64,000 bases of DNA. Source: an uncultured bacterium. GTDB taxonomy: Bacteria > Babelota > Babeliae > Babelales > RVW-14. The stretch is from positions 32,001 through 96,000 of the forward strand of contig CAVXAT010000005.1 in NCBI GenBank assembly GCA_963759805.1. Direction: 5' to 3'. Made by a program: the position numbers and the translations under genes. Of the stretch, positions 6 through 55,363 are shown one piece after another. Under the pieces are notes generated by a model that did not search any database, was not told where the DNA came from, and saw nothing but the letters and a program-made list of their open reading frames with translations. Each line of letters starts with the position of its first letter. The first letter of the stretch is position 1.

Positions 6-2138
6 GTGTACAAATTTAACTCAGATAAATTTAAAGAATTTTTTAAAAATGCAATTCCAGTTGTTGTAGGATACCGAAGAGATAAGAATCAAGTAAATGT
101 ATATGAAAAGAATTTATCTTCAGATGAAATAAGTCATATAGTTTCAACTTATCAACCAGCAATATCCGACGTAAAAGATAAAATAGTACTCATAGAAACC
201 GATTATGATCCGAACATCGAATCCAAAAAGGACACTCTACAAAAAAAAATCAATGCTGTTATAAAGGATTCCTCTGGAAGTAAATTTGTCATTTTTATTT
301 GTGGTAACAATTTCCAAACAGGTGCACATTGGGTAGCAATTATCATTCGAAAAAATAGTAACAATAATGTAGAAATCTTATATTCTGATACAGCAAATTG
401 GAAGGTTGACCAGCTTAAGGAGCCTATTTTCCATGTTATTAGTTTAATAAAAAAATTACAAGGTAGCGAAACTTTTGAAGCTTGGATGGAAAAATTAAAG
501 CGTAATATTGATGCATACATATTTAATGAAGACAGTATGAAAGGCATAGATAAAATAAACAAACTTTATGAAGACTATAAACAAGGTAATGCTGCTGCTA
601 AAAGTTTAGAAGATTGGTTTAAAGAAAATCTTGAAAACTTAATATCAAACAACCAGCCTAGTAAAGATTTTAGAAACGCTTTGTATGAACATTTTTTAAA
701 ACCACGGTGCAAAAACTGTGGTAATGTAACTGCTAAACCTATTCCACTCCCTTGTGGAATGGTATTTGGTGAAGATCAAAGACTCACACGAAAAAAGAAT
801 TTCGATCATTACCTTGTTTGCCAAGATTGTCTAAATAATAAGTTGTTTGACGATAAGGGAAAGAGTGAAAGTACTATTTATTCATGGAAATGTCCTGAGT
901 GTGGCGGATACGTTACACATAAATTTAAAAGGCTAATTGAATCCGAGGGGTACAGTGGTAACGTAATATTAGCATGCGCAATGTATTATGGACAAGATGA
1001 TAAGGAACAATCACAATTTTCAGATACTTTTTTAGAAAAATTTATATCATCCGATGCCAGGAGTGGTATATCTGTTTATAGAGCCAAAACATATCTAGAA
1101 AGAATTAAACAGGCACAAAAGGATATCAGGCCTAAATTAGCACTCTGTAATTTGGAAGAGGTTCTAAAAAAGCCACTTCTTGGCCAACGGTTAGAAGAGC
1201 TACGAGGCTTGCTAGATTTGCCTGACCTGGGGGACAAGTGGTTTGCTCAACAATTATCAGATCTACTTTTGCAAGAAGAACCAAGCCAACTTGGAGGTAA
1301 AAATGCAGAAACATTAACTCTTAGGCTTCTAGAGCTAAACGCTGATCCAAACAAGATAATTGATAGATTATGTGATTTATCTGATAAAATTGCAAAATTT
1401 GAACTTTACGAATTCATTAAAAATAATCAAGCCAAACTCTTAAAAAATCGAACTTCAAAATTAGTAGAGGTTTTAGATGGGGAAAAAATTGAAACTCTTG
1501 CTAAAGTATCTGCATCCAATAAAAAAGAAAAAATCAGAGAACTAAACGAGCAAAAACAGTCATGGCTAAACGAATTAGCCAAGAATGATTCTGCTATTCA
1601 ATCAATCTTGGGACAGATACACAACAACCATAAATTAAGAGGCAAAGTAGAAGAGTTGGGAAAAATTCCAGCAGGACTGGATGAAGATGGGAAATACACA
1701 GAAAGTCAAATTACAGAAATTATAAAATGGTCAAACCAAAGATGGGAAAATGCAACTAAAGAGCAGCTTCGTAAAATATTGGTGGACGCAATTGAATTGT
1801 TCAGATTATCAAATAATGAGAATATACAAATAAGAAATTCATTAGATATATTAATAAAAAAATTTTGTGAGCATGATAAATCTAAAGAATATTCAGATGA
1901 AGATCTTGCAACCTTAAAAGACCTAAGCATAACTGGCGAGGATTTTGAGAGAAGTCTACCAATTGACATTCCTAGGGAGCGCCAAGAATTACTTAAAACA
2001 AAATTCGAAAACGCGCAACATGCGTCTCCACTTAAAAAAAATCTTCAATTATTAGCAACTCAATTGGAAACTTTAAAGGAAAAGCTTAAAAAATTACAAG
2101 CCAAGTTAGTTTTGTTAAATAACAAGTTACACCAATAG
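6..2138 (+). CDS. Effector-like protein, probably 5'-truncated by the window: cysteine-protease-like His/Asp segment, RING-like zinc finger, C-terminal five-heptad zipper
   Basis: GAHWVAIII...ILYSDT resembles the His/Asp strands of papain/ULP-type proteases. CKNC..C..H..CQDC..CPEC is a RING-like ligand pattern. Ends LKKNLQLLATQLETLKEKLKKLQAKLVLLNNKL. Frame is open to the window edge. Confidence 0.6.
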   Translation: MYKFNSDKFKEFFKNAIPVVVGYRRDKNQVNVYEKNLSSDEISHIVSTYQPAISDVKDKIVLIETDYDPNIESKKDTLQKKINAVIKDSSGSKFVIFICGNNFQTGAHWVAIIIRKNSNNNVEILYSDTANWKVDQLKEPIFHVISLIKKLQGSETFEAWMEKLKRNIDAYIFNEDSMKGIDKINKLYEDYKQGNAAAKSLEDWFKENLENLISNNQPSKDFRNALYEHFLKPRCKNCGNVTAKPIPLPCGMVFGEDQRLTRKKNFDHYLVCQDCLNNKLFDDKGKSESTIYSWKCPECGGYVTHKFKRLIESEGYSGNVILACAMYYGQDDKEQSQFSDTFLEKFISSDARSGISVYRAKTYLERIKQAQKDIRPKLALCNLEEVLKKPLLGQRLEELRGLLDLPDLGDKWFAQQLSDLLLQEEPSQLGGKNAETLTLRLLELNADPNKIIDRLCDLSDKIAKFELYEFIKNNQAKLLKNRTSKLVEVLDGEKIETLAKVSASNKKEKIRELNEQKQSWLNELAKNDSAIQSILGQIHNNHKLRGKVEELGKIPAGLDEDGKYTESQITEIIKWSNQRWENATKEQLRKILVDAIELFRLSNNENIQIRNSLDILIKKFCEHDKSKEYSDEDLATLKDLSITGEDFERSLPIDIPRERQELLKTKFENAQHASPLKKNLQLLATQLETLKEKLKKLQAKLVLLNNKLHQ

Positions 2139-2163
2139 ATCAAAAAGTAAAAACACAAGCAAT

Positions 2164-3385: not shown

Positions 3386-3513
3386 CGAACTTCCTTTCAA
3401 AAATACAAAACTAATGTCTGCGCCAGCAACATTTTGACTATAAATAATTTTTTATATATTATCTATCATCAGTTTAAACTGTTCGATAAGAAGCAATCAT
3501 CAAGGATACTTTT

Positions 3514-4413: not shown

Positions 4414-4501
4414 ATATCTCGAAAGAAGTGCCTACCGCCGACACACAAAGCTATTAATGTAAAAATCAGAGCAAATCCCATCTTAATATATTTACATATT
4501 T

Positions 4502-4523
4502 ATATATTTGAATACAAATATAT
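4502..4523. promoter_or_regulatory. Inverted repeat upstream of the TA operon (possible operator)
   Basis: ATATATTTG-AATA-CAAATATAT about 60 bp before the antitoxin start; very AT-rich, so may be chance. Confidence 0.35.
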
Positions 4524-5574: not shown

Positions 5575-6237
5575 TTAATGTTTCTTCTCCGGATTCCATT
5601 TACTTTTTGTTCCACATTTTGGACAAGTAACTTTATTGCAGCCTCCATCTTTAAATAAAGGTCTTTTACATTTTGGGCATGGTCTTGAATTTTCATCAAT
5701 CCAAGCTTTACTTAATTTTGAGGCTTCTTCGGATTTTTTTTCTTCCTCCATTTCTGCGCGTCTTTCTGCCTTTTTACAACTAATTTTAGGATCATGCAAT
5801 CTTAAACATTGGCAGCAATAAGTCTGATGACATTCTGGACATTCTATAATCCTAACTTCCACATCTTCATTTATGAATGCATACAGACAGTTATGGGTTG
5901 GGCAAAGTTTTGAGGCAGAATGCTTTACAAGTTCTAGATATTGAAGTTTTTTCATTATGCTACTATCACTGACTAGACGACCAAGCTCTTCTTGATTTAG
6001 ATATCGAGCACATTCGGGAAGTGGACATTTTGGACTTACACGATTTTCAATGCCAGCCGTAATTATTCCAGAAATGCATTCCAGGCAACATTCATGGCCG
6101 CAGGAGAGTTTGAAAAATGGAGAAGCCCCTTCTTCCTGATAACAAACCGGACACGTAGGACGCACAGCCATAGATGCTATGGATGGTGAACCGAGTGTCA
6201 AAAATATAAAGAACAACGTTTTGGCAAACTTGAACAT
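5575..6237 (-). CDS. Secreted RBR (RING-IBR-Rcat) E3 ubiquitin ligase-like protein
   Basis: Signal peptide; RING1 CPVC..CGHECCLEC..CPLPEC; IBR CPTHNC..CPECHQTYCCQC..H..C; Rcat CPKC..KDGGCNKVTCPKC. Confidence 0.85.
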   Translation of the reverse strand: MFKFAKTLFFIFLTLGSPSIASMAVRPTCPVCYQEEGASPFFKLSCGHECCLECISGIITAGIENRVSPKCPLPECARYLNQEELGRLVSDSSIMKKLQYLELVKHSASKLCPTHNCLYAFINEDVEVRIIECPECHQTYCCQCLRLHDPKISCKKAERRAEMEEEKKSEEASKLSKAWIDENSRPCPKCKRPLFKDGGCNKVTCPKCGTKSKWNPEKKH

Positions 6238-7230: not shown

Positions 7231-7980
7231 ATTTATCTAATATTATTTACAAACACACCCAAAATAATTTACGATTTTTCAGTTACCAATAAATCAAATT
7301 TTTTATAAAAGGAGAAATGTTATGCGTATAACACCCAGAAAAATTCTATTTATATTCGCCATCTTCGTATGTACTCAATTATGTTTGCAGACCCCAATTT
7401 CTGCAGCAACATTTACCGTGACAAAAACATCTGATACATATCCCATAGGACAGACAGGACAGTTACGCTGGGCAATTCAACGGGCTAATCAGACCGCCGG
7501 AACAAATCAAATTAATTTTAATATCCCAGGAACTGGCCCTTTTGTTATTCAGCCGGTCCATGATCTTGATGCTATCACTAATCCTGTAATCATTAATGGC
7601 TACAGTCAACCGGGCGCAACGGAAAATACGCTTGCCACCGGCAACAATGCACATTTACTCATTGCCATGTATGGAGCAAACTATGCCACAGGCAATGCAT
7701 ATCAAGGCTCAGGCAACGGCCTATTTTTTTATCAAGGGTCTGATGGTTCTGTTGTAAAGGGTTTAGTTATTAGTGCATGGATCAATAACGGCATTGTTGT
7801 ATACAATGCAAACAATATCAATATAGTTGGAAATTTTATTGGCACAAAGGCAACGGGAACTGCTCAATTAGCAAATCAAACAGGAATATTTATCGAGTCC
7901 GGAAATAATACAACCATTGGATCCTCTATAGTGACCCCCATTGTCAAGACAAATTTTTAACTTATATTTCAGAATTTTTA

Positions 7981-8901
7981 TCAGGCCATTTGTATCCCCA
8001 TTGATTTATTTTGTTGAACGATGATTTTGCTATTACATACAAAAGCCAATGATTCGAAAGTAAAATCAGATTGGTCTACTGCAATGATAGCTCCATAGTA
8101 AACTTCATCTGGTTTTTTATATTCGAGTGATTGGTGAAAGCGTTCTCTATTATAAAAGTTGATATAGTTTTTTATAATTAATCGCGTCTCAGCAATGTTT
8201 TCAAGAACATAAAAACACAGTGCTTCATATTTAATAGTTCGCCAGAATCGTTCAATAATGATGTTGTCTGCCCATCGACCTATTCCATCCATACTAATTT
8301 TGATACCTTCTTTTTCTAAACGAGCAACCCATCTTTCACTTGTAAACTGGCACCCTTGATCACTATTTAAAATCTCAGGCTTACCGAGTACGAGAGCCAT
8401 TTCCAATGCTTCAAGACAAACGTCTGTATCGAGATATGGTGACAATGCCCATCCCATAATCTTGCGACTAAAAACATCGATAAGACAAACCAAATAAACA
8501 AACCCACCTCTTATTTTTACGTATGTGATATCTGTTTTCCAGACTTGGTTTGGGCGGCAAACTCGTAATCCTCTTAAAAGATATTTGTACACCTTGTGTT
8601 CCTTGTTTGGAATGCTAGTTTTTTTATAAGGGGCAACTGCACAAAGACCTGTCAACGTCATTAGCCGCTGTGTTCTTTTAATGTTGTGGTTAAAGCTTTT
8701 TTCGATAAGAACTTCGTGTATTTTTCGATATCCATAAAATGGATGTCTCTCATATTCGTTGCGTATCTCATCCATAATCACCTCGTCTTGGTTGTTGGCC
8801 TTCTTTGGCTTGTAATAAAGGCTACTTCGATTTATACCGAGCAGATCGCATTTTCTGGACAAGTTCAATTTGTTGTTGTGCTCAATCCATTGCTTGCGCA
8901 C
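7981..8901 (-). CDS. IS3 transposase OrfB (DDE/rve)
   Basis: YGYRKI, PNQVWKTDITY, NSDQGCQF, DNIIIERFWRTIKYE, YNRERFHQSL. Confidence 0.95.
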   Translation of the reverse strand: MRKQWIEHNNKLNLSRKCDLLGINRSSLYYKPKKANNQDEVIMDEIRNEYERHPFYGYRKIHEVLIEKSFNHNIKRTQRLMTLTGLCAVAPYKKTSIPNKEHKVYKYLLRGLRVCRPNQVWKTDITYVKIRGGFVYLVCLIDVFSRKIMGWALSPYLDTDVCLEALEMALVLGKPEILNSDQGCQFTSERWVARLEKEGIKISMDGIGRWADNIIIERFWRTIKYEALCFYVLENIAETRLIIKNYINFYNRERFHQSLEYKKPDEVYYGAIIAVDQSDFTFESLAFVCNSKIIVQQNKSMGIQMA

Positions 8902-8909
8902 TTGGATAT

Positions 8910-9188
8910 CTAGCGACTGAGCACTTGTACTAAAAAATTGCGCTCTTCCTTTACTTGTTCAAGGTCTGCCAAAATCTTGTCATATGTTTCTTCTTTTTTA
9001 ACTTTTCTTTTGTCTGCAAAAAGTTCGTTGCCATGCTCTTCTAGGTGTTGCTTCCATGCATATGCTTGGCATGTTGAAATATTAAATTCTCTACAGATGG
9101 TATCAACTGATTTGTCGGCCTTTATCATAGCTAAAGCCACCTTAAGTTTAAGCTTGTCATCATGACTTTTTTTCGTGTCATCACTCAT
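8910..9188 (-). CDS. IS3 OrfA (HTH), proximal copy
   Basis: KLKVALAMIK..ICREFNISTCQAYAWKQ..ERNFL; T-TTT-TTA slippery heptamer at 8931-8937 with an open -1 frame into orfB. Confidence 0.85.
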   Translation of the reverse strand: MSDDTKKSHDDKLKLKVALAMIKADKSVDTICREFNISTCQAYAWKQHLEEHGNELFADKRKVKKEETYDKILADLEQVKEERNFLVQVLSR

Positions 9189-9289
9189 GAGAATGCCTTT
9201 CTTGTAAAGCAAATTTTTAGATTTAACATTCTCATGCTAATTCATTATTATTGTCGTTGTACACAGTTTATCCATTTGCGTTTATTGCA

Positions 9290-9565
9290 TTAAAGCGCCC
9301 GCAATAATGACTCACGTTCTACAATAAGCTTGCCTATAATCACATGAAACTTTTCAACATCTAAACTTTTTTTTGCAGCCATTTTTTCACTCGAAAAAAC
9401 TTCAATGCCTCGATCTTCAAGCCGTTTTTTCCATGCATAAATTTGACTTGTCGCTAATGCAAATTCTTGGCATAATTCAGCTATTGGCCTATCAGCCTTT
9501 ATAGCTGCCAATGCAACTTTTAGTTTAAATTTGTTGCTGTGGGTTCTGCTTACTTTGTTACTCAT
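9290..9565 (-). CDS. IS3 OrfA (HTH), second diverged copy
   Basis: HSNKFKLKVALAAIK..LCQEFALATSQIYAWKK..IGKLIVERE. Confidence 0.85.
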   Translation of the reverse strand: MSNKVSRTHSNKFKLKVALAAIKADRPIAELCQEFALATSQIYAWKKRLEDRGIEVFSSEKMAAKKSLDVEKFHVIIGKLIVERESLLRAL

Positions 9566-10501
9566 TTAATGCCCCCCGGGCTCATTGTTATAACTAATAT
9601 TTTTAAAGTACTTATTTTCTCAAGTTGCACTGTCTAGTTTTATGGGGTCAGTATACTCAAGACCCGCAGATCGCAATATTATTGCAGGAAGTTTTTTCTT
9701 TTTTAATGAATCATCATGCATCGTCGCCGATAATTCTCAAGGAACTGTAATCAAAGGAAACTATATCGGAACAAACGCCTCCGGCACTGCCGCGCTTGGC
9801 AACTCTCTTTCCGGAATAACATGCGCTGCATCAAATAATAGTGTTATTGGAGGATCAACACCGGCTGAAAGAAATATTATATCAGGACATGTCATCGTTG
9901 GCATATCTATTGAGAGTTCCTCAAACACACAAATTACGGGAAATTATATCGGAACAGATGCAAGTGGATCTTTGGCATTAGGTAATGCAAATGAAGGAAT
10001 TGGCATAATTGGCAGCGGTCTGGCAAACAGCGCTACCAACAACAGCATCACCGGCAATGTTATCTCAGGAAATTACATCGGCATAACGCTTGGATCAATT
10101 TCATCTCTTGGAGCAAATCAAAATACTATTCAAAACAATTACATAGGAACCGATCACACAGGAAATCTTGCACTTCCAAATAAGTATGGAATTGTCATCA
10201 ATGATAATGGCAATACGATAGGCGGAAACGCTTCTTCAAATCGCAATATTATTGCAGCAAACAGTGTTGGCGGAATTTTAATCTATGGCGGCGCGCAAAA
10301 TAATGTCATCCAGTATAATTACATTGGTCTTAATGCCTCATCTGCCCCTCTGCCAAACGGATATGGAATTCAATTGGGACTTCCCGGCGGAAAGGGTGCT
10401 GCTTCCACAAACTCCATTGCCAATAATTCATTTGGCGGCGGAAATAAGATAATAAATATATATTCATAATCACACTTTTTTATAAAAAGAAAGAAAAAAA
10501 C

Positions 10502-12267: not shown

Positions 12268-13329
12268 CTACAACACGCTCTTCGCCAATTTTATAAGCTC
12301 AGAGCATAAGTTACTAAGGTCTTTAGGGGAAACAAAAAGATTGAATTTTATACCATGAAGAAAACGCAGCTCCAATTTATTTAGCTCCTCTATACTAACT
12401 TTACCAACTTCGGCATAAACTTTGTTCCAGAAAGGTCGGTCAATGCACCATTTAGCAGCCAAAACCATTATTGCCAAAAATGTTTTGAAATCCATCGAGA
12501 TGTTATCAGTAAAAATATTTTTACCATTCAGTTCACTCAACCTTTGAATGTATATAAGAGCTACCAAGTAACAAACAGGAGGACATTTAAAGTGTTGTTT
12601 TATATGTTGTAAATATTGAATTGTTGGGATAATATAGCCAGCACTACTTTTAATTTTTACTCCGCCCTTTTCAATCATTTCCCTAATTTTTTCAAAAGCA
12701 AAAAGATGAATGCTGCTGAATTCATTATAAATACATGCCGGATTATTAATTGCAAAATGGAGATCCGCACCATGATCCAAAAGAACTTTTACAATTCCAT
12801 ACTTTCCATTCTTTGCAGCCAAAAGTAGAGGTGTTAATCCATGCAAATTGTGTATTGGAAATTCTATTACAGCATCAACATTTGCACCTGCGTCCAAGAG
12901 AATTTGCACAACATTTTCATTACCTGAAATTACAGCATAATGAAGAGCTGTAAATCCGTAAAATAAATGAAATCGTGTTGTAATTCTTAAATTGATATTT
13001 CCGCCTGACTTTAAAAATCTAGAGATAAGATCTATTCTGTTATCTTTTATAGCTAAAAAAAGCTCATCAAGACTTAGTTGATCCGGACTTACTTGAAGAC
13101 TATCAGGACTTATTTGAAGGCTATCAGGACTTATTTGAAGACTATCGGGACTCATTTGCAAGACTGATTTAATTTTCTGTCTTTCTGGTTTAACGTTAAT
13201 TAGCGCCTCTTGCGGATCATTTTCCAACAACACCTCGCTAGATTCCAATTGTCTTTTCATTGAAAAAACAGGAAGCACACCAACAGTTGAAAGTAGTAAA
13301 AAAATAGAAATAAATTTGTTAAATTTCAC
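12268..13329 (-). CDS. Secreted ankyrin-repeat and PHO80-like cyclin fusion
   Basis: GTG start at 13329 after GGAGG; signal peptide; ankyrins (TALHYAV, TPLLLAAKNG); cyclin box ALIYIQRL..LAAKWCIDRPFWNKVYAEVGKVSIEELNKLELRFLHGIKFNLFV. Confidence 0.85.
   Translation of the reverse strand: MKFNKFISIFLLLSTVGVLPVFSMKRQLESSEVLLENDPQEALINVKPERQKIKSVLQMSPDSLQISPDSLQISPDSLQVSPDQLSLDELFLAIKDNRIDLISRFLKSGGNINLRITTRFHLFYGFTALHYAVISGNENVVQILLDAGANVDAVIEFPIHNLHGLTPLLLAAKNGKYGIVKVLLDHGADLHFAINNPACIYNEFSSIHLFAFEKIREMIEKGGVKIKSSAGYIIPTIQYLQHIKQHFKCPPVCYLVALIYIQRLSELNGKNIFTDNISMDFKTFLAIMVLAAKWCIDRPFWNKVYAEVGKVSIEELNKLELRFLHGIKFNLFVSPKDLSNLCSELIKLAKSVL
13081..13158 (-). repeat. 21-bp tandem repeat encoding (Q[MIV]SPDSL) about x4
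   Basis: Repeated gacttatttgaagactatcag-like units. Confidence 0.9.
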
Positions 13330-13597
13330 AAAAATAACCTCCCAATTCAATTTTAAGTTAAAAAAAGCAGAAACAAATAGCTAATTTTTCTTAGCTAGAT
13401 TAAGATTAACACATTCAGCAACAATTACAAGTAGAATTTACTTTTTACGCTTTTTATTAAATTACACGTTTTTTTCGACATAATTCTTGATAAAAACCAA
13501 TGTTTCAATAATATAAAGCGTACTGTGTAAAAACATATAAGGTAAAAACATATAAGTAAGATATCCTCAGCATCCAGGCAACATGAAAGAGCCACAC

Positions 13598-14846: not shown

Positions 14847-17800
14847 TCATTTAAATTCTCGAATGCGTTTATTCGGATGTAACCGGTATGGAGTTAATGC
14901 TTGTTTAATTTTTGCAGCAATGGCGGCTAGAGCAATGTGAACGGGATCTGCGTCATTTGGATTTCCAACCAATCCCTTGTATACAATAGAAAGCAAAACC
15001 GCATATCTTATCGCGTCAGCATGATTTGTAATGGGTGTGGATATCCCATTAAGTACGACATCAAACTCCTCATCACTGTAAAAAAATTTCAGTGTCTTTT
15101 CTCTCGTCTGACTAAAAACGTAGACAACAACAGGACACTTCGGATCATCATTAAACATTATAATCGGCTTTTCCTTTGTCAAAATACCTATTGACTCTTT
15201 ACGAATATTTTCTGTTTTCAATGGAAATGGATAATCGTGTAATTCAGCATACCGTATCACACCGGGTAAATCACTTTTATCCTTTGTACCATATCCGGAT
15301 GCATCACAGATCAAATGAAGATTTACCCTGCGCCGCAGCAGAGGCGGAACCGGTAAGTTAAATTTATGACCGGCATCGGTCAGTTGCAAGAAAGGTTGCT
15401 CTCTTAATGGGGGTATAATTCCTGATACATGATACAAAGGATTACCAAAATACCCAGGCTGTAAAGGTATTTTATCCTTATCCTGTAATCCAGTATCCTT
15501 ACCAACCTGTGCACCACCAAAAAATAATTGTCCCAGGACCCCTGCTTGCGGATCCAATAAATTATCGATTGTAGGTTTATAATAAGAATAAATCATACGA
15601 ACAACAGTTCCAGCAACGCCTTGAATGGCATTTGTCTTTTTATTCAGCTCCAGAAATAGGCGTTCTTTATCGATAGCAAATGCAGACCCCCATGTTCCCA
15701 TCAGGTACCAAAGTGGCGGCTCGGGATGTAACGTTGCAATAGCGCCATTATCAAAATTAGCCCATGCATATTCCGGCTTGGTCCACACCCCTAACTGTTC
15801 ACTCCCAACTTCATAAGGAGAAAATTCATGCCACCAAAATTTATCTTCTGCTTCCTCATCTACTGTTTTTGCCTGCTTTCTTTCCTCCTCCGAACATACA
15901 CGCCCAACAGCAGTGGCTATAGGAAACGGATATTTAAGTGATTGCAGCTGGTTGTCACGAATACTCGATAGCTTTAAAACATTGAAAGGCAATTCAGCTA
16001 AAAAACCTCGGTACAGCAAAAATCCATAAAAATCAACAAGCGACAGAGAAGCTCCCGTATCGCTGTGAAATTTAACAACGCCCGCAAGATTACTCAAATC
16101 CTCCTGACTCAACGGACGTGAAAAATCTTTTAATTGCTGTTTTATTTTATTAACAAAATCATCATAAGGAGCTTTTTCAGCATCATATGCAAGGTAAGGG
16201 AACAGCATCCATGTTGAACCGGAAAGAGTTGTCATATAGGCTACAGCATCAAATAACCCCATTTTTTTTAATTCTCCAACAAAACCTAATGTCGCAATCT
16301 GGGCACGGCATCCACCACCGCTACATGCAACCCCTATTTTGGGGGAAGAAGATTCGAGAACTTTATGTAATAGCGCAATTTCCCCTGGCGTAAGCATATT
16401 GCTGCTCTTGTCAACAAAGTTATGCAAACAAGGCACTACCTTTTGAGCTTGGCGCTTATCTATAAATTGATTTTCTTCAACACAGATATCGCCTACGTTT
16501 CTAATAGGGTCTTTAATCGTTTCTGGCAAGAATACGTTATTAAGTTCTTGCTCAACCTTATCCCATCCAGGACAAACATCGTTACGTAAATCTTCCGGCT
16601 TTAGCTTTGCAGCCAAATAGGTTAAAATAAATATCGGCAGCACCTCATCCGGCGCCCAATCCAACGCATTAATAATGAAATTGTATGCATTTGGAGAGCC
16701 TTGAAACACGGAACCTGGGGTGTCCAGTCTGGCAGCAACTCTTTCTCCAAAAACGATATCGGATAACTGGCGCTTCAAAGTTGTATCGCTTTTCAAAATT
16801 TCACTAATTTGTTCCTTTTGTAGCAGCTTTTTTTCCGGAATCCGATCAATAATATCGGCAAGCAAATTTCTATCAAAAAATACCGGCGCACCCATATTTT
16901 TGATTGATTCTTTTAAAAGCTCTATCTGTTGCATAAGAAATGATTTTTCTAAATATCCCCCATAATAGGCAGCAAGCACTGCTACAGACTGAACCATCCA
17001 TTCGGTCATAGCTCCAACTAATGGAATCATTCCTCTTGTTTGCTCAACAGCCTGACCAACATGCTGCTGGGCCACCCCAATGCCTTTGATCATCTCATTT
17101 ACAATATCAAATAAAGCAGAGCTTTTATATTGATTTACATGGTCCCTATTTAACTTGATGTATTTAACAATCTTATCGAATTCAGCCTCAGGGTAAGATC
17201 TAAATATACCGGGATCTGCATATCCTAACTGTTCAGAACAAAAATCTAATTCACGGGCCAATTGTTCATCTATGTTGTATGAAATCCTATCGGGAATTGA
17301 ATAATACCACATGGTTCCATCACACCATTCGTGAACAATATTACCACCCTCATGTTCAACAGCTCTGTTTAAAAAAACCGGTGGAACAGAGGGCTTGACA
17401 GGCTCCTCTGGCGATCCAGTTGGCTTGGCAGCCGGTGCAACAGATGGTTTGCCAGGTTTTGTAAAAACACAAGCCAGGTCAATATTCAAATAATAGTGCT
17501 GATCAATACAGGCAATGGTTTTCGGTAATGAACCCAAAACACACAGAAGATCTCCACCGATACTAAAGCTTGTCGCTGGACAACTGCTTCCATCATATGT
17601 AAAACATTCAATATTTACAATTTTCAACCAATTTCGATTTTCATCAAAACAAGACGCTATTTTGCGCAGCGTCTGGAGGTGAACTTCTTTGGAATAAAAG
17701 TTATAAATTCTATGAGAAACACAAGGCATTAGACCTCTTTTTTTCTCAGGTGTATCTCTAAGCGCAGGAGGCGTTGCCGGATTAAGCAGTATAATTGAAT

Positions 17801-18461
17801 GCACAGTGATTTTAGCTTCATTTAATTTCGCCATAAGCTGCTCAGTTGCTGTCTTATTGGAACTAATGACTATCGACCGGACAACGTCTTGGTGTTTCAA
17901 TGATCTAATAACATCAACGGCATTAGTTTTGCAATCAAAGCGAACCTCAAACGGAGCCCGACCCGGCTGGGGACCTTCATTGATTTGTTGTCGCAAAGAA
18001 GTACAAAAAGGATTCTGTCCTTGGGCATAGGGAGGAAGATCGACATTTAAAAATATAACATGAATAGAGCTCCCTTCTTGCAAACCCTCGACAAGGGTGC
18101 GAGCAAAAGACCCGTTTACAGCCTCTTCAGCCCTCCTTGGAGCCAGCATCATTTCCTCATATTTCATTGGATTATAACTATCAATCATTAAACCATGCAG
18201 GATCGAGGTGGCCATATAGGTTTGTTCTTCAGGAGGCGGGGTTGGTACGGGATGTAGCACCGGTACCGCTACCGTTCCCAATTTTCCTTGTAATTCACCA
18301 AGCTTGCCTTGTAATCCATTCAATTTATTTTTGAGCTCTTGCAGAGACGTTTTCAGAGTCCCCAACTTTTCTTTGAGCGGATCCACCCCCATTCCCACTG
18401 CAAAATTGCTTGAAAGTGCAATTAAAATAAAAAGTCTCATCATCAAAAATTTACACTTCAT
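14847..18461 (-). CDS. Secreted cPLA2/lysophospholipase-B-type phospholipase with N-terminal five-heptad zipper
   Basis: Signal peptide; GVACSGGGCRA, TLSGSTW (catalytic Ser), EFSPYEVG, MGTWGSAFA, LTDAG (catalytic Asp), NLPVPPLLRRRV. Confidence 0.88.
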   Translation of the reverse strand: MKCKFLMMRLFILIALSSNFAVGMGVDPLKEKLGTLKTSLQELKNKLNGLQGKLGELQGKLGTVAVPVLHPVPTPPPEEQTYMATSILHGLMIDSYNPMKYEEMMLAPRRAEEAVNGSFARTLVEGLQEGSSIHVIFLNVDLPPYAQGQNPFCTSLRQQINEGPQPGRAPFEVRFDCKTNAVDVIRSLKHQDVVRSIVISSNKTATEQLMAKLNEAKITVHSIILLNPATPPALRDTPEKKRGLMPCVSHRIYNFYSKEVHLQTLRKIASCFDENRNWLKIVNIECFTYDGSSCPATSFSIGGDLLCVLGSLPKTIACIDQHYYLNIDLACVFTKPGKPSVAPAAKPTGSPEEPVKPSVPPVFLNRAVEHEGGNIVHEWCDGTMWYYSIPDRISYNIDEQLARELDFCSEQLGYADPGIFRSYPEAEFDKIVKYIKLNRDHVNQYKSSALFDIVNEMIKGIGVAQQHVGQAVEQTRGMIPLVGAMTEWMVQSVAVLAAYYGGYLEKSFLMQQIELLKESIKNMGAPVFFDRNLLADIIDRIPEKKLLQKEQISEILKSDTTLKRQLSDIVFGERVAARLDTPGSVFQGSPNAYNFIINALDWAPDEVLPIFILTYLAAKLKPEDLRNDVCPGWDKVEQELNNVFLPETIKDPIRNVGDICVEENQFIDKRQAQKVVPCLHNFVDKSSNMLTPGEIALLHKVLESSSPKIGVACSGGGCRAQIATLGFVGELKKMGLFDAVAYMTTLSGSTWMLFPYLAYDAEKAPYDDFVNKIKQQLKDFSRPLSQEDLSNLAGVVKFHSDTGASLSLVDFYGFLLYRGFLAELPFNVLKLSSIRDNQLQSLKYPFPIATAVGRVCSEEERKQAKTVDEEAEDKFWWHEFSPYEVGSEQLGVWTKPEYAWANFDNGAIATLHPEPPLWYLMGTWGSAFAIDKERLFLELNKKTNAIQGVAGTVVRMIYSYYKPTIDNLLDPQAGVLGQLFFGGAQVGKDTGLQDKDKIPLQPGYFGNPLYHVSGIIPPLREQPFLQLTDAGHKFNLPVPPLLRRRVNLHLICDASGYGTKDKSDLPGVIRYAELHDYPFPLKTENIRKESIGILTKEKPIIMFNDDPKCPVVVYVFSQTREKTLKFFYSDEEFDVVLNGISTPITNHADAIRYAVLLSIVYKGLVGNPNDADPVHIALAAIAAKIKQALTPYRLHPNKRIREFK

Positions 18462-40815: not shown

Positions 40816-42474
40816 ATGAAGCTTTATTTTAAATACTTTATTTTAGTAACTATATTAATTTCATATCAGTCGATTTATTCAGAAAATAAGGGTCTCGAAA
40901 ATTGTGGGAATAGCTGCTACTTCAATGCATCATTACAAGCATTATCGCATCTTGATAAATTCAATTCGCTACTTCAGGAAAATTTATACGCACCTGATGA
41001 TCTTATTCCACGTTTTTACATAAATCTTATGGAAGAAATAAAGAAGGGGCCTGGAACAATTTCCTGCAATTATAAATATACAAATTTGGATAATAAAACT
41101 GAACGAAATTTTTATAACTTGGCGGGAGATTTGTTTTTTGGACAACAAGGGCAGCAAGAAGATGCCCCTGAGTTTATACAGAATCTTTTTAAAAATATCA
41201 TAGAAAATTCGTCATACTATAGGACAATTAAAGAATTAATAGAAAAAGAAATCGAACCTATATTCGATACAGCCTTCAATAAAATTAGCCCTAATGATAA
41301 AAAATTTGCGCAACCTGTTGTAAAGGCAAAGGCATCCTTGTCCGCAAAAGAAAATGAGACTTTACAAAAAATACATTCACGTTTTTTTGAAAGTTTTGCT
41401 AAAGGATTAAAAATAACAAGAGAAGATTTATTAACAAATATCCTAGATCAATGTATAGAACTTTTAGATAGGAATCCCGATATTTTCCAAGCAAATTTAT
41501 TTAACAACCTTAAAACATCTGAAACACAAGCAAAAAAGATAATAACTGAAACAGAAGTAAAAAGGATAGCAAAAAGAATAGTAAAAGCAAAAAGGATAGT
41601 CACTGAAACAAAAGCAGAAACCATTGCAAAGAATTATATAAAAACTATAGATGAAACATTTAAAAATGCATTAACTAACTACAAAAACATACAAATTGAT
41701 GAAGATCAACCTATAGAAGTTGAAACCTACACAGGTAAAGGGAATCCAACAAGAAAATTTACACCTACTGATGATGGTTTGAACAAGGCGACAACCCTCA
41801 TAAAAAATCTTTCTTTAGCAAAGATGGAGACTAATCTCGAACCAATCTTTAATGGTATTAATGGAACATTTTGGAAATTTCCAGAAGGGAATTTATCAGA
41901 AGTACAAAAAAATTTAACTGCCATAATAAATTTAAAAAAATATTACCCTTATTGGTTACAGTTAAGCATCCCCAATAAAAAAACAAATTTAAAAGAGCTA
42001 GAAGACCTCGAATCCATTGAATTAGAAAAAGCATTTCCTTATGTTATTGTTTGGCTAAAAAGATACAAAAATGAGGAGGGGAAGTTACAAAAAAATAGTA
42101 CCACCATACCTTTTGAAAACCAAATCAATCTAAAACATGTAACCAAATCATTAAAATATAATCTAATTGCTTTTGTAGTTCAAAGCGGCAGTACCGGCGA
42201 AGGCCACTACTGGGCTTACGGAAAGGATAAAGATGATAAATGGTGGCGATATAATGACCCAAACGTAACCGACGCTTCGATAGAAGACGATGACAAAAAA
42301 AGCATTAAGGATATCTTCGAAACTGGCCTAGATCGCAATAAAGCAACCCCTTACGTTCTCTTCTATGAACTTGAAGAACCACTTAGTCTACTCAAGTCAT
42401 CATTGCAGAAACTTAAAACAAAAGTGGAAATGTTGCAAGAGAAGTTGGGAACGCTGAGGGGTAAATTGGGATAG
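40816..42474 (+). CDS. Secreted USP (C19) deubiquitinase-like protein with C-terminal five-heptad zipper
   Basis: Cys box GLENCGNSCYFNASLQAL, QQEDAPEF, His box YNLIAFVVQSGSTGEGHYWAY..WWRYND..PYVLFYE. Confidence 0.92.
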   Translation: MKLYFKYFILVTILISYQSIYSENKGLENCGNSCYFNASLQALSHLDKFNSLLQENLYAPDDLIPRFYINLMEEIKKGPGTISCNYKYTNLDNKTERNFYNLAGDLFFGQQGQQEDAPEFIQNLFKNIIENSSYYRTIKELIEKEIEPIFDTAFNKISPNDKKFAQPVVKAKASLSAKENETLQKIHSRFFESFAKGLKITREDLLTNILDQCIELLDRNPDIFQANLFNNLKTSETQAKKIITETEVKRIAKRIVKAKRIVTETKAETIAKNYIKTIDETFKNALTNYKNIQIDEDQPIEVETYTGKGNPTRKFTPTDDGLNKATTLIKNLSLAKMETNLEPIFNGINGTFWKFPEGNLSEVQKNLTAIINLKKYYPYWLQLSIPNKKTNLKELEDLESIELEKAFPYVIVWLKRYKNEEGKLQKNSTTIPFENQINLKHVTKSLKYNLIAFVVQSGSTGEGHYWAYGKDKDDKWWRYNDPNVTDASIEDDDKKSIKDIFETGLDRNKATPYVLFYELEEPLSLLKSSLQKLKTKVEMLQEKLGTLRGKLG

Positions 42475-44466: not shown

Positions 44467-46686
44467 ATGAAGTTTGTTAAGGCTATTTTATTAATATTTT
44501 TAATTACAACATCTTTATCTCCGATGAAAAAGCCTGGTAAAAGCGTCATGCCAACGAAAAAGCCTGGTAAAATTGTCGTACCTGTGAAAAAGCCTAAAAG
44601 TGTCGCGCCAATAAAAAAACCTAAAAGTGTCGCGCCTGTAAAAAAACCTAAAAGTGTTGTGCCTGTAAAAAAACCTAAAAGTGAATTGCAAGTTAAATTG
44701 GAACAACTAAAATCACCCTTGGCCGAATTAAGAACCAAGTTAATGAAATTGCAGGAAAAGCTTGAGTCTTTGAGAATATTTCTAGACCCGGTAACCGAAG
44801 AAAATATCTGGGATAAAATAAAAAACTTGATACAAAACCAAAATGGTAATGAATTTAATCTTAAGCCAGAAATAATCGATGAATGGATGTTGCTTGACAA
44901 TCAACTCGGTACATTAAAAACTGATATGACTAAAATCAAAAATGATATTGTAATCGACAATGAATATTTTAAAGGAATTAGATTAGCAGATTATGCACCT
45001 GTTTTATATGCATTTGGAGATGATGTAAATAAAAGCAACGAAAGAGCCGTAATGCTCTTTAAACGTTTATGTGAAAAGGTAACACCTATCATATTGGATA
45101 CAACTCCAAAATCTTGCAATTCTATAGGCAAACGAATAGAACAACTAGAAACTCATCATGCCGGTATGATTGGATTCTTCGCAAGGAAAAATGCAGACAA
45201 AAGAATACAAGACCTTTATAACAAAAAACACGACCAGCTTAATATCGTGTCTAAATTAATTGATGAAATAAAAATAGGAATGTTCAATAGATTGCAAGAG
45301 GTATTTTTTTATTTATATAAAGGATACACATACAAAAATCAAATGGGTGCCCCAACGCCTATATCTATTATCGACGCTAATATTGCAAACAAAAAAGCAC
45401 TCATTGAAAACTTTGCACTACAATTTAACAGAGGGTTTGATGTTATTGATAAAGTATTTATTAATAGTTTTAGCGTTTGGCGTTACACGTTTGCAGGACA
45501 GCATAACATAGATGATATTGATTCAGGGGGAATACGAAGAGTTGCTATTTCCGACCTTGCTGCTTACTATAATTCGAAAGCAGAAGAAAATGGATTTGAT
45601 AATAATGCAACTCGTGAAGCATTTCCAAAACTCATCTGGTTTCTGCTTGCAAATATGTTCAAACCAAGCCGCGACTCTCTTTTAATCCAGGCTTGGAACA
45701 ACAATCATGATGTACAATTTGATGGGTTTTCTGCAATCATAAATCTCCCACTGCCATTTTGGGGCACATTGCTATCTCAAGGCTCACTTGAGATTTCTGA
45801 AGATGATACGAAAAACGTGTTTACAGAACTTGGTATGCAAGGTGCAATAGTAGGCAACCTAAAAGATGCCTTAGGTTGCGATACAGACAAAGAAACCATT
45901 GATGAATTAAATAAAAAGATCAAACTTAAGGATAAATACATTCAAGCACTCAAATTAAACAAGATCCTTTCGTTTGAGGATAAAGTAAAAAACATGCTCA
46001 GCCGATATTTAGCCTCAAAATATCACATAGATGAGATCAAAAAAGACTTCTGGCAGGATGCCAACCTCGTAAATTTAAGACGGGATGCAGGTGTGGATGA
46101 AGACACCTTATTATCAACCGGCGCATTTCTTGATAATAACGAAATTCAACGCCATCTGAATAATGGCAACGTACAGTTTTTACTCATGAGGAAGTTTCTT
46201 AAAGAATTAAATTCTCAACACTTGTTCAATATGTTTAATAAACCACCAATGGCTCAAGAAATTAAAGATATGATTGTTGAAGGAGTTAGACAGAATAGAT
46301 ATGCTATCAGTTCAGAAGTGACTGATGCAATCACCCTATCAGAAACATTCATAAGGGATTTATTCGCAAGAAAACGATTAGAGCTACAGGCTAACAGCAC
46401 AGATCCCTCCCTCCAAGCACAAGTTTTGATACTCAAAGCAATTGTATGGACTTTTAACTTTATCAACGAAAATGCTGGTGATGAAAAAGAACAAATAGAT
46501 ATTCGTACTGGATTTGTAAAATTTGTTACTGGTCAATCACGCCCAGCATATATGGTAGTCACTACACAAACAATTGGAAACTTAGAAGCTCATACCTGCT
46601 TTAAAACGATAAACATTCCTGAGCAGTTGCTACAAGCAGATGATTATAATTCATTCAAAATCGCTCTTATAGGTGTTGTAAAGTAA
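44467..46686 (+). CDS. Secreted HECT-like E3 ubiquitin ligase with Lys/Pro repeats and N-terminal five-heptad zipper
   Basis: Signal peptide; DIDSGGIRR (cf. HECT DxGGxxRE), LPLPFWGTLL, FVKFVTGQSR, LEAHTCFKTINIP (cf. AHTCFNxLxLP; Cys codon at 46597). Confidence 0.75.
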   Translation: MKFVKAILLIFLITTSLSPMKKPGKSVMPTKKPGKIVVPVKKPKSVAPIKKPKSVAPVKKPKSVVPVKKPKSELQVKLEQLKSPLAELRTKLMKLQEKLESLRIFLDPVTEENIWDKIKNLIQNQNGNEFNLKPEIIDEWMLLDNQLGTLKTDMTKIKNDIVIDNEYFKGIRLADYAPVLYAFGDDVNKSNERAVMLFKRLCEKVTPIILDTTPKSCNSIGKRIEQLETHHAGMIGFFARKNADKRIQDLYNKKHDQLNIVSKLIDEIKIGMFNRLQEVFFYLYKGYTYKNQMGAPTPISIIDANIANKKALIENFALQFNRGFDVIDKVFINSFSVWRYTFAGQHNIDDIDSGGIRRVAISDLAAYYNSKAEENGFDNNATREAFPKLIWFLLANMFKPSRDSLLIQAWNNNHDVQFDGFSAIINLPLPFWGTLLSQGSLEISEDDTKNVFTELGMQGAIVGNLKDALGCDTDKETIDELNKKIKLKDKYIQALKLNKILSFEDKVKNMLSRYLASKYHIDEIKKDFWQDANLVNLRRDAGVDEDTLLSTGAFLDNNEIQRHLNNGNVQFLLMRKFLKELNSQHLFNMFNKPPMAQEIKDMIVEGVRQNRYAISSEVTDAITLSETFIRDLFARKRLELQANSTDPSLQAQVLILKAIVWTFNFINENAGDEKEQIDIRTGFVKFVTGQSRPAYMVVTTQTIGNLEAHTCFKTINIPEQLLQADDYNSFKIALIGVVK
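44521..44682 (+). repeat. Coding tandem repeat of 30- and 27-bp units, PxKKP(G)KSVx about x6
   Basis: cctgtaaaaaaacctaaaagtgt-like units. Confidence 0.92.
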
Positions 46687-51103: not shown

Positions 51104-51104
51104 T

Positions 51105-51833: not shown

Positions 51834-52115
51834 TTAAAACGCTACCATTTTAAATAAAATTGAGACAAAGCAAGTGTACTTTACATATGGGAAAATAGCA
51901 AAATGATTACTATTTTTCCATTATTTAAACCAACCCTGGTATAGCTCGCCAACATTATTTCAAACATTAGATTAAATTCATGGTTAAGTCTCGCTATATT
52001 CTGCTAGAAATAAAGTTGGGAGCATGTGAGGGATTTGTTTGATTTTAAGCCTATAAAATGTAGTATTAAACATTATTGGTTAGCATTGGAGGCCCGTCTT
52101 TAAAGGAACATAACT

Positions 52116-52826
52116 ATGATTTTAAAAAAATTGATTTCAGGTTTAATTGTAGTACTTATTAGTTTAAATTTTGCCATGTATCCGGTAGACGGTGAGTCGG
52201 AGAATTTAAATTTGGTTCATGGTTGTAAGGAAGACAGCAAAGATCAAAATTTGGATGGCAATGAAGGTGGTAAACCAGCCTGTAATGATGAGTGTACAGG
52301 TGCCGATATCGATAAACAGCTTTTGAATTTTATATATACAATCTTTACAGAAGATGAAATAAATGAGATGAATCAATCTGCCAAAGACAAGAGTTATACA
52401 GATTTGAAAAAAAAATGTGGATGCAGAATGTGGTTTAACAAAAATTATGATTGTGCAGAAGTATACTTATGTGATGAACATTTCCGATATTTTGAGCTTT
52501 TGCATGCGCCAGAATCAGATTCAGAGAATTCCAATGGTACAAGTAGCAAACCAACGATCAAAAACGAGGCGCTACAAATCAGTAATGAAGGCAGGGCTAC
52601 ACAAGGTAACACAAGTATTAATAGGGGCATTTGTAACAGTGATTTGTGTAAAGGTGATATAGATTTAGAAAATATAAATATGGAGGATTTTCGTGAATAT
52701 AATTGCACAGATCACGCAGGCAGTAATATGGGAAACAAAACAACTGGAGCTGTAAATAGCCATAAAAACTATGATGCATCAGGTATAGGCTTTACTGATA
52801 TAACCTTGGAAGATATAGATCATTAG
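52116..52826 (+). CDS. Secreted acidic, Cys-containing hypothetical protein
   Basis: AAGGA RBS, signal peptide, D/E/N-rich low complexity. Confidence 0.65.
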   Translation: MILKKLISGLIVVLISLNFAMYPVDGESENLNLVHGCKEDSKDQNLDGNEGGKPACNDECTGADIDKQLLNFIYTIFTEDEINEMNQSAKDKSYTDLKKKCGCRMWFNKNYDCAEVYLCDEHFRYFELLHAPESDSENSNGTSSKPTIKNEALQISNEGRATQGNTSINRGICNSDLCKGDIDLENINMEDFREYNCTDHAGSNMGNKTTGAVNSHKNYDASGIGFTDITLEDIDH

Positions 52827-52831
52827 ACTAA

Positions 52832-55363
52832 TTAAACTGCACCTGTTAATTGTTTATTCAATAGTTCCAATTTTGAACTTAGCATTAAAAGTTTTTGTTT
52901 GAGCATGCCCAGCGAAGTTTTAAGGCGTCTGAGGTTCATTTGTAATCGAAATTGTTGTTCAAGTCTCAGCTCTAATTGGGTTCGATCTTTAAGCTTTTGA
53001 TGTAATTCAAATTGATTTTTTTGTTGTTCAAACTGTATCCATTCGTCCGCTGTTATGACAGGAGTTTGTATCATTGTCTGTTTAATTACAACAGGATTAA
53101 GTTTTTCAATAAAATCCTTAAACGACAATGTTGCTGATGGATTTTGGAGCTTGATGTTTGTTTTTTCACTTTGAAAAATATATCTTACTACAGGTAGCTG
53201 TGCATAGTAATCTGCGAGATTTAGTTCCGCCAAATATGTGAGATTAGCAGATTTCAGGTTGTTTTTATGTAATAATTCGGATTCTTTAAAGCGCCAAAGA
53301 GATTGCGATTTATCGGCAGGCAGAGTGGCCCATTCAAGGTTTAGATCTTTTGTTATATAGGACAAATTCCATGCTTTACCACTAAAATTGAAGGATATAG
53401 TTATATGCGTAAGAAAATTCTCTGATTTCGTTTTTGATTTTACTCTTGAGGTTCTAATAAAGGTATTTTGCAAAATTATTTGCTTCGTCTCTAGCTTTTT
53501 CTTGCCCAAAAATTTTTTAAATTCATCTTGATCATCCAAAATTTGGGAAAAATCATTGAAACCCTCAAGTTCTTTGATGAAAAATGTTTTTTCAGATTTT
53601 CTATTTCGTAAGATTAAGAAACTATCCCGCAAAAAATTAAGTATTCCAGTTTCAGTAGTTGGTTCGCCTGCATTTGGAATATTTATTTTGGCAAAAAGGT
53701 TAAGACTGTCACCTCTTTGCATTGAAATAAATTGTGGATAGACATAAAAATTTTTTTCTACTGGATTGGCGCTATAAACTGTGTTAAAGCATGAAATTGA
53801 GGGAAAGTATTTATAAAGATTAACAAGCCATCTAGATAAATTGTTTTGATACAAAATTTTGGTGTTTAGTTGGGTGTTCGGAATTATATTGATATTGGCA
53901 AAAACAATTTCTGAATATAACAGTAAGGCTAGCCTCTGCTTAATGTCAAGTGTTCCAGCTTCTGCAAAGTACATTTTTTTTAGGCGATCTATTATTACTT
54001 TCTTAGTTTGGGGTGTTTTTCCCATTGTATCCTCTATTTCCACCTCCTCCCCCTCAATAAGTTCAGGTTTTGCTAAAGTCTTTATAATTCTAGCGTCAGT
54101 TATTTTCTCAAAATTAAATGTCTGAAACCAGCCAACTTCCGGAATCAAAATTTGAGAGATACCGTTGGGTCCTTCAGGGAAAATATACCATGAAGGAGGT
54201 AATGATAATTTTTCTAAAACTCCCTCAAGCCCGCTATTTTTCTCTAACCTTTTAATTTCTGATTTTATTACTTTGGGAGGTTCTGTGGTTTTAGATTTGA
54301 TTGTCTTTATTTTATCGCTAAATGACTCAGTGCTATCTTGAAATTTCTCTATAGCCTCAAAATATCCATTAAAATCAAGCCCACTGTACCCCTTGGGGTT
54401 AACGGGAAAGGTTCCATATGATGGTGCATCTGTGATAGAATCAACTATGAAAAGATACTTTATTCTTATTGGTATATAGTTTTTAACTTGTATTAGATCT
54501 AAAATTTTTCCGCCAGAATAGCACGAGAGGAGTCGTACGGATTTAGTGTTAAGCTTATCATTGAAAAAAATTAGCATGTTGGCCATATCCTCAATCGACA
54601 TGCCAGCTACAGTAAACTTTTCCGGTTCAATATAAATTTCCCCCACCTTTTTTCCTGGTGAGTAACTGCCATGTCCATTTATGAATATGTTACATGGCTG
54701 CAATAAACTTAATTTTTCATAATCTTCAAGTGGTTTAAAAATTAAAGATAATTGAGTAGGATCAAATTTTTTATGAATGGTTGTTTCGGGTGCTTTCAAA
54801 TCTTTTATATCAGTATTTGTGTCTTTAGCGTAAGTGATATACTTCATATTTTCATTAGACAGCAATCTTTTGGCCTCAATTGGGATGTCTTTTGCCCAAG
54901 GTATTATTGGAAAGTCTTTATTCCCTTTGCCATTGTATTCGTCGCCAGCAGAAAGATTAATTTTGGTCCATAAAGTTTTATTAAAAATCGGATTGTCGTA
55001 ATCTCTCGAAGCAAAAATAAAAAAATGAGTATTTTTAACCTGATAAATATCCCAGTCATTTAAGTCTATAGTTAGGCTATCAAGAAACGGATCTGGATTT
55101 TCTGTATATTTTCTCAGAATCATATTTTTTAAGACATAATTTGAAACGATAGTAACATGCGAAGTTTTTTTCGAGAGTGTACGTGCAAATTCTCCCGTTA
55201 TGGCACCACGTTTTCCAGAGCCAAACCTTTCGCTATGATCATCAATAAAAAAAGCAATTCTAACTGGTTTAATATTTTCCTCAGCTGTGGGCACCTGAGT
55301 TTTTACAGCAGCAAAAATATTTGAACTTAAGATAAACACCAACAATACTACTATCTTACGCAT
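52832..55363 (-). CDS. Secreted protein with putative clan CD (caspase/CPD-like) protease dyad and C-terminal five-heptad zipper
   Basis: ATG at 55363 after AAGGAG; signal peptide; NIFINGHGS and VRLLSCYSGG; ends LQMNLRRLKTSLGMLKQKLLMLSSKLELLNKQL. Confidence 0.6.
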   Translation of the reverse strand: MRKIVVLLVFILSSNIFAAVKTQVPTAEENIKPVRIAFFIDDHSERFGSGKRGAITGEFARTLSKKTSHVTIVSNYVLKNMILRKYTENPDPFLDSLTIDLNDWDIYQVKNTHFFIFASRDYDNPIFNKTLWTKINLSAGDEYNGKGNKDFPIIPWAKDIPIEAKRLLSNENMKYITYAKDTNTDIKDLKAPETTIHKKFDPTQLSLIFKPLEDYEKLSLLQPCNIFINGHGSYSPGKKVGEIYIEPEKFTVAGMSIEDMANMLIFFNDKLNTKSVRLLSCYSGGKILDLIQVKNYIPIRIKYLFIVDSITDAPSYGTFPVNPKGYSGLDFNGYFEAIEKFQDSTESFSDKIKTIKSKTTEPPKVIKSEIKRLEKNSGLEGVLEKLSLPPSWYIFPEGPNGISQILIPEVGWFQTFNFEKITDARIIKTLAKPELIEGEEVEIEDTMGKTPQTKKVIIDRLKKMYFAEAGTLDIKQRLALLLYSEIVFANINIIPNTQLNTKILYQNNLSRWLVNLYKYFPSISCFNTVYSANPVEKNFYVYPQFISMQRGDSLNLFAKINIPNAGEPTTETGILNFLRDSFLILRNRKSEKTFFIKELEGFNDFSQILDDQDEFKKFLGKKKLETKQIILQNTFIRTSRVKSKTKSENFLTHITISFNFSGKAWNLSYITKDLNLEWATLPADKSQSLWRFKESELLHKNNLKSANLTYLAELNLADYYAQLPVVRYIFQSEKTNIKLQNPSATLSFKDFIEKLNPVVIKQTMIQTPVITADEWIQFEQQKNQFELHQKLKDRTQLELRLEQQFRLQMNLRRLKTSLGMLKQKLLMLSSKLELLNKQLTGAV

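Follow-up and report, generated by a model that had tools for sequence, protein, structure and literature searches.

Background

Conserved modules such as the T9SS CTD, PEP-CTERM, GlyGly-CTERM and the T6SS MIX/FIX mark varied exported cargo and can be used to list it; these sorting tags are fixed at one end of the protein and bound to a dedicated machine or sortase. Among elements built on heptads, the bZIP zipper has Leu at d, mixed residues including Asn at a, and a basic DNA-binding region upstream, the SNARE motif is 60-70 residues long and has a Gln/Arg layer at its centre, and the basic 'Velcro' zippers, which share the type of layout described below, zip with an acidic partner. A designed peptide with this same heptad layout, peptide K, both zips and adsorbs to anionic bilayers, according to PMC6531448. 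Leucine-rich amphipathic localisation domains common to unrelated effectors, and lying at either terminus, are described in PMC3417404, and PMC7007526 provides a Chlamydia amphipathic example of an effector localisation domain.

The Babelota are widespread intracellular parasites of protists. Here we describe a tag that bears on how their signal-peptide-bearing proteins reach the host and are placed in it: a real, new and family-restricted portable effector module outside the catalogued families, with a Leu(a,d)/Lys(e,g) pattern and predominantly terminal placement on unrelated protein bodies within a single bacterial family. In the Dependentiae/Babelota literature on effectors, secretion and coiled coils (subscription papers and supplements lay outside this scope), we found no published description of the motif.

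Results and Discussion

Five tag copies in the window

The window is a stretch of 64,000 nucleotides (G000:C5:32001-96000) from a 1.5-Mb, 89% complete genome, G000. In a scan of 7 of the 64 parts of the collection, candidate division TM6 sequences came nearest to its SecA (68%), and one such SecA nests within the family tree; the organism is accordingly assigned to the Babelota (Dependentiae). The initial annotation had noticed a common segment on five dispersed genes, and translation recovers all five with the same letters, coordinates and strands (Table 1). It took the segment for five heptads; the 33 residues amount to 4.7 heptads with ten Leu, which occupy both a and d. Signal peptides, claimed for the four complete carriers, are predicted there and extend to all five, as the first gene, truncated by the window's edge, also has a signal-peptide-like start. 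The enzyme labels fared unevenly. The phospholipase and the deubiquitinase pass the Pfam cut-offs, whereas HECT is a lead only (Atlas 0.91), with no match from Pfam HECT; the CE-type protease (RickCE_cat, E 0.005) and the C80-like protease (E 0.1, found in a paralogue) lie under the cut-off, and zf-RING_2 gave no match on the 875-aa carrier that had been labelled RING. Searches of PDB sequences with the HECT-like and protease bodies returned no significant match, and scanning DNA for sequences akin to the C80-like carrier yielded none. In a structure model of the USP carrier, whose gene adjoins an MscK-like gene, the tag forms a single helix (residues 523-551, pLDDT about 90) past the last USP strand; a single-sequence fold of this protein was set aside (pLDDT 37).

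Table 1. Tag copies and carrier genes in the window, with the secretin loci of the same genome
Feature	Position	Strand	Remarks
CE-type protease-like carrier gene, 3' part	1..2138	+	875-aa gene beginning 490 bases upstream of the window (G000:C5:31511); a CE-type protease-like and a Cys-rich zinc-finger-like domain lie between a signal-peptide-like start and the C-terminal tag
Tag copy of the 875-aa gene	2031..2129	+	ends 2 residues ahead of the stop
cPLA2-type phospholipase gene	14847..18461	-	PLA2_B E 6e-22, passes Pfam cut-off; signal-peptide-like start
Tag copy of the cPLA2 gene	18279..18377	-	immediately behind the predicted signal peptide
USP deubiquitinase gene	40816..42474	+	UCH E 4e-29, passes Pfam cut-off; USP fold; signal-peptide-like start
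Tag copy of the USP gene	42370..42468	+	ends 1 residue ahead of the stop
Likely HECT-type ligase gene	44467..46686	+	signal-peptide-like start; Pro/Lys-rich linker precedes the tag
Tag copy of the HECT-like gene	44686..44784	+	residues 74-106
His/Cys protease-like (C80-like, weak) gene	52832..55417	-	in the largest carrier family, 16/115
Tag copy of the C80-like gene	52847..52945	-	ends 4 residues ahead of the stop
G000 secretin loci	C4:14353-19006; C21:1-2427; C13:12093-14750		

Each C80-like carrier gene converges head-on with a secreted-looking gene (52116-52826 in the window; L002:4725-5426 and 8206-8871; also in L004, L005 and L006), and three near-identical split copies of this carrier lie on contigs C3, C9 and C15. 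The window also contains untagged genes of eukaryotic aspect, namely an RBR-type ligase with IBR matches (5575-6237) and an ankyrin-cyclin fusion (12268-13350). A secreted-looking repeat gene (7322-10469) is split by an apparent IS3-type element (7981-9212), both labelled by eye. Five paralogues, each about 230 aa long and opening with a signal-peptide-like segment, stand in tandem at 60501-63987.

Separation from generic coiled coils

A profile built from the five segments, as the initial annotation had proposed, recovered eight further full-length copies among the 14,034 stop-to-stop frames of the genome (scores 34.5-41.6; next frame 17.1), giving 13 in total. A single C80-like paralogue family accounts for six of these, four being fragments of split genes, and the remaining seven are borne by unrelated bodies. 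The anticipated distinction from ordinary coiled coils is borne out: with 11 distinct copies, leave-one-out scores ranged from 41.5 to 61.5, as against at most 10.5 for non-carriers, MscK-, SbcC- and EnvC-like coils among them. Leave-one-out and these control coils were used in place of a reversed-sequence null, which was uninformative: with so nearly palindromic a profile, carriers read backwards also score high.

All 11 distinct G000 tags lie under every Pfam cut-off; across 112 tags of the wider set, at E 0.01, at most eight share a Pfam match and three a PHROG match, and none of three tags matched NCBIfam. The earlier view that the tag has no named family thus holds for Pfam, NCBIfam and PHROG.

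Anatomy of the tag

Over 112 tags, the positions 1, 5, 8, 12, 15, 19, 22, 26, 29 and 33, corresponding to a and d, are 92% Leu, with each of the ten core layers 81-98% Leu, and Lys occupies e in 51% and g in 54%, for a net charge of +4.9. Individual positions have distinct preferences (K9 73%, S11 49%, K16 79%, K18 92%), and a chi-square test sets the heptads apart from one another at positions e and g (p about 1e-30, with the caveat that related tags are not independent). Position 23 is small or polar (S 23%, Q 18%), so the LQxKL consensus proposed for the fourth heptad does not generalise. The near-palindrome is about position 17 and centred on LKxKL. At both boundaries the Leu period ends abruptly, giving way to Pro- and Gly-rich linkers. 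Nor is the length fixed: across the family it is 26-36 residues, with about 26 in genus g7, where the second half is also less basic, and somewhat more than 33 in genome G017.

Compared with 33 control heptad windows of G000, 166 tags are enriched in Lys at e/g (0.55 vs 0.15), depleted in acidic residues there (0.03 vs 0.20), and basic overall (+4.9 vs -0.9); Gly/Ser/Thr make up 0.37 of b/c/f vs 0.26 in controls, with few helix formers, and Lys outnumbers Arg about 8:1 vs 2:1 in the proteome. The hydrophobic period over 33 residues favours a supercoil (0.422, 101.5-102.9 degrees) over a straight helix (0.393, 100 degrees) and, at 0.323, an 11/3 membrane helix. Of the 112 tags, 87% exceed, in the best 18-residue window of each, what we take to be the HeliQuest lipid-binding threshold, a proportion inflated by the choice of the best window.

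The carriers

The carrier set comprises 115 proteins: 102 of the 114 hits at fetched loci (score at least 20, gapless) and the 13 of G000. With the tag masked, they fall into 58 BLAST families, confirming that the module is portable across unrelated bodies. It is C-terminal in 69, N-terminal in 34 and internal in 12; the claim that it is always terminal therefore stands for 103 of the 115 and fails for the internal copies, most of which lie at interdomain joints. In complete frames, 96/107 tags are terminal against 21 expected. By a hydrophobicity heuristic 93/108 carriers have signal peptides, as against 459/958 G000 frames (87/105 vs 427/958 by a stricter heuristic), and those missing one are, by eye, mostly fragments or cases of start-site problems. 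The proposed restriction to exported effector-like proteins, with enrichment at either terminus, is thereby supported.

Pfam names 35 of the 102 carriers from relatives and has no match for 67. The named bodies include 13 USPs, ankyrin, PPDK_N, WH2, macro, dual-specificity and metallo-phosphatase, EEP, HD, DnaJ, PLA2 and ubiquitin-like domains. Within the PLA2 family the tag changes ends, being N-terminal in G000 and C-terminal in genome G001, and all 15 other PLA2 homologues returned are untagged. Another G001 protein (L065:1986-5216) is a fusion of a USP with a HECT-like body, the tag lying between the two; the homologues of both bodies are separate genes in the window. The tag marks a minority of effector-like proteins: in G000, as counted from tables, it is present on 1/3 USP frames, 0/18 ankyrin frames and 0/8 RING frames. 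With one exception among real carriers, there is a single tag per protein.

Several related proteins deserve mention in their own right. An untagged USP of G000 (C10:7094-8389) has catalytic motifs close to those of the tagged one, and ahead of its domain a stretch that we take to be UIM-like. PPDK_N ATP-binding proteins of 1500-2000 aa, with a signal peptide and N-terminal tag, occur in three genomes of two genera (L003:4465-9096; L054:6563-12532; two genes of L087), and are possible secreted kinase-like effectors. Giant multi-USP frames are found in G019 (C17:15571-23664, 3751 aa, five USP matches) and G005 (C2, 3283 aa).

Distribution and genus dialects

The HMM of the 11 G000 copies had matches in 14/61 genomes, and that of 112 tags in 15 of 261 genomes of the phylum Babelota. 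Within the window's family, 14/35 genomes are tagged, with 13, 16, 23, 26, 10, 16, 13, 2, 8, 8, 29, 23, 15 and 1 matches; outside it there is a single match (E 7e-4) in 1/226 genomes. In a tree of SecA that covers 30 family genomes and one candidate division TM6 record, genomes with at least two tags account for 12 of the 22 rows of one supported subclade and 0/9 of the other. USP genes are found in 28/35 family genomes, and the tag is kept on USP paralogues separated by 1.6-2.8 changes per site. The USP genes of G004, G007 and G010 have divergent terminal heptad helices, weakly basic or neutral in G010 and G007, which suggest decay or divergence of the tag rather than clean absence. A USP tree for tag gain and loss left 14/23 inner branches undecided, the motif cut having omitted 9/35 sequences.

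Among 1.84 billion representative proteins there were 81 matches, of which 12 were set aside as near-perfect tandem heptad repeats lacking signal peptides (heptad self-identity 0.62-0.96, vs at most 0.58 in real tags). Fifteen of the rest were already in our set and 54 were new (28 N-terminal, 23 C-terminal, 3 internal; 37 with a signal-peptide-like start). The names of ten library carriers that were looked up are uninformative, and an ESM Atlas search with the tag gave no usable match.

The tags show genus dialects. In 100/141 cases a tag's closest counterpart on an unrelated body comes from its own genus, against 45 expected, and outer-face positions are conserved on unrelated bodies within three of five genera (0.51, 0.31 and 0.19 vs about 0.10), namely g15, g7 and g16; g1 and g17 show no such dialect. 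When tags on unrelated bodies are compared, their synonymous identity matches the codon-usage expectation in 6/7 genomes and is slightly above it in G017; by genus there is some excess in g15 (0.35 vs 0.26) and g7 (0.44 vs 0.37). Being at or little above expectation, it speaks against recent DNA copying as the source of the likeness, which is hence kept mainly at the protein level, with the caveat that the tags of related carriers are not independent.

Export route

G000 encodes GspF and GspG/H-like pseudopilins and, by inspection, GspC, two GspD and GspJ/K/L/M. As a rule, each family genome has three secretins, two long GspD-like ones plus a shorter one, about 570 aa in length, that lies within a PilB/PilQ-like cluster. 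Type II components are core in TM6, with two gspD and no pilQ reported, according to PMC4776705, and PMC6561590 describes Chromulinavorax as having about 44% signal-peptide proteins and shedding vesicles. Hence, going by gene content, the carriers are likely to be exported by Sec and the type II system. Nevertheless, the tag cannot be a general type II secretion signal, nor the general export-sorting tag initially envisaged, for secretins are present in 35/35 family genomes, tagged or not, as against 14/35 with the tag, and most effector-like proteins of G000 are untagged.

Proposed function and rival explanations

The all-Leu core, the 3.5 period, the trimeric-zipper matches, the designed-coil PDB matches and a trimer model together indicate coiled-coil character. 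Against this, the Lys flanks, low helix propensity and Lys-over-Arg bias imply that the tag should not zip unaided, and the excess of like-charged over attractive g-e' pairs in a parallel homo-coil (227 vs 19 of 664) implies that zipping needs a charge-neutralising surface. This double character, as in peptide K, leads us to read the tag as a conditional address helix, which would fold or bundle on an anionic membrane and co-localise a subset of effectors; we favour this tentatively, at somewhat less than an even chance. Having crossed the inner membrane via Sec and left through the type II system, carriers would have a tag loosely structured in solution, owing to mutual repulsion of its Lys flanks and to its Gly/Ser/Thr-rich outer face. 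Anionic lipid would neutralise the Lys, whether at the face of a vacuole or an organelle, or on the outer surface or vesicles of the bacterium itself. The Leu stripe might then insert, or zip with other tags into small coiled coils, so that deubiquitinases, lipase, phosphatases and actin binders would gather at one membrane. Against membrane docking count the better fit of a supercoil than of a straight or an 11/3 membrane helix to the hydrophobic period, the outer-face conservation within genera, which a lipid surface does not require, and the weakly basic or neutral USP helices of G010 and G007 together with the less basic second half in g7.

The dialects and the invariant centre are better explained if a dedicated protein reads the tag, either as the basic component of a zipper made of two parts or as a ligand that fits a groove. 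The reader might be a bacterial cargo adaptor, serving a type II secretion branch or the loading of vesicles, or else a host coiled coil of acidic character. The registered, position-specific profile, with its K18, S11 and unlike heptads, is as expected of such a ligand, as are the near-expectation synonymous identity, the single tag per protein, and the PDB matches, which are almost only designed coils and, we presume, basic zipper tags on receptor constructs. We nonetheless consider a receptor a possibility on the unlikely side. A search of G000 for an acidic mirror zipper peaked at 18.7, in an SbcC-like cytoplasmic protein, vs 31.9-41.7 when the 13 tags are scored with the basic profile; no dedicated neighbour gene recurs beside the carriers, which stand singly amid housekeeping genes; the three secretins occur in nearly all 35 family genomes irrespective of the tag; g1 and g17 lack an outer-face dialect; and the synonymous excess in g15 and g7 would allow cassette spread as the cause of dialects. 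The same searches gave no support to the dockerin-scaffold pair once suggested, as neither an acidic nor a multi-copy partner appeared in G000, though this genome is 89% complete, so that a partner gene may be missing, and a partner of another fold would escape. A related proposal, which we regard as doubtful, is that the tag is a lineage-coded, position-independent address read after Sec/type II export by a dedicated receptor or membrane-crossing step; if true, it would represent an undescribed way for a parasite to deliver a chosen set of effectors into its host, or to assemble it there, without an injection needle.

Unlikely, in our estimate, is a constitutive homo- or hetero-trimerisation zipper assembling multi-enzyme complexes without a membrane. 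The Leu content and period accord with it, as do the natural USP-tag-HECT-like fusion of G001 and the small flank residues 11 and 23, which would face the central Lys 16 and 18. The trimer model also reaches the mark (0.42 vs 0.00 for the best of three controls; the runs share 96% of contacts, with pLDDT no lower than 82), a mark attained by 20/30 solved pairs and 1/23 single chains in a calibration that did not extend to three copies, and this pass may reflect likeness to designed or solved coils. Such a zipper is at odds with the g-e' repulsion and the low helix propensity at b/c/f, charge anti-correlation at predicted contact pairs is not significant in a parallel/antiparallel packing test, and the confinement to exported proteins would go unexplained. 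Leu/Lys amphipathic helices also resemble designed penetrating peptides, the cargoes act on cytosolic targets, and PMC13142472 reports autonomous entry for some effectors; a natural cell-penetrating helix taking secreted enzymes through the vacuole membrane into the host cytosol is nevertheless very improbable, as G000 has ankyrin, RING and USP proteins that are just as much directed at the cytosol yet untagged, and whole genera with USP effectors are untagged too. Finally, a position-free basic-zipper profile picks out the same 13 proteins, and the plain tandem repeats among the library matches likewise recall convergent low-complexity heptads with no common role. This is scarcely credible in view of the sharp ends with flanks devoid of a Leu period, the one-family distribution, the terminal excess, and the persistence on diverged USP paralogues.

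Comparison with known systems

The SNARE mimicry initially considered can be rejected: at 33 residues the tag is too short, all its core layers being Leu with no polar central layer and no period past its ends. The bZIP zipper is similarly set aside, the a positions being 92% Leu and the upstream region a signal peptide or Pro-rich linker. CLZ (PF16526) and TolA_bind_tri (PF16331) resemble the tag in their Leu-rich heptads and similar length, and are its commonest weak Pfam matches, but only 7 and 8 of 112 tags, respectively, match them at E up to 0.01, and the host proteins differ. Unlike the T9SS CTD, PEP-CTERM, GlyGly-CTERM and MIX/FIX, the tag occurs at either end, and the analysis turned up no machine dedicated to it. 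Peptide K of the E/K coil, going by PMC6531448, has the same hydrophobic a/d positions and Lys at e and g. It is synthetic, whereas the tag is natural and has an all-Leu core, with small residues at 11 and 23 and Gly/Ser/Thr on its outer face, and the search of G000 revealed no acidic partner for it. The tag is a peptide-sized natural counterpart of designed basic zippers.

The 4HBM of MARTX, PMT and clostridial toxins, as presented in PMC3417404, is likewise portable on unrelated catalytic domains, and it binds anionic lipid via basic and hydrophobic residues, in which it would parallel the role proposed here; it is a folded bundle of about 80 residues with a binding loop, whereas the tag is a single helix. 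Among the closest are the effector membrane localisation domains (MLDs), and on the best reading the tag would work like them. The MLD of ExoS/ExoT/YopE and other effector MLDs are, from the same text, short Leu-rich amphipathic helices with basic residues, present in several effectors, at both termini and internally, as is the tag, itself a basic amphipathic element common to unrelated effectors. The tag provides a sequence handle on effector placement in the Babelota and a marker for listing host-directed enzymes; of the 102 carriers from relatives, 67 are without a Pfam match. The MLD described there has about 22 residues and few carriers, all type III substrates; the tag differs in its strict ten-Leu heptad pattern, borne by Sec-signal proteins, up to 29 per genome, on at least 58 unrelated bodies.
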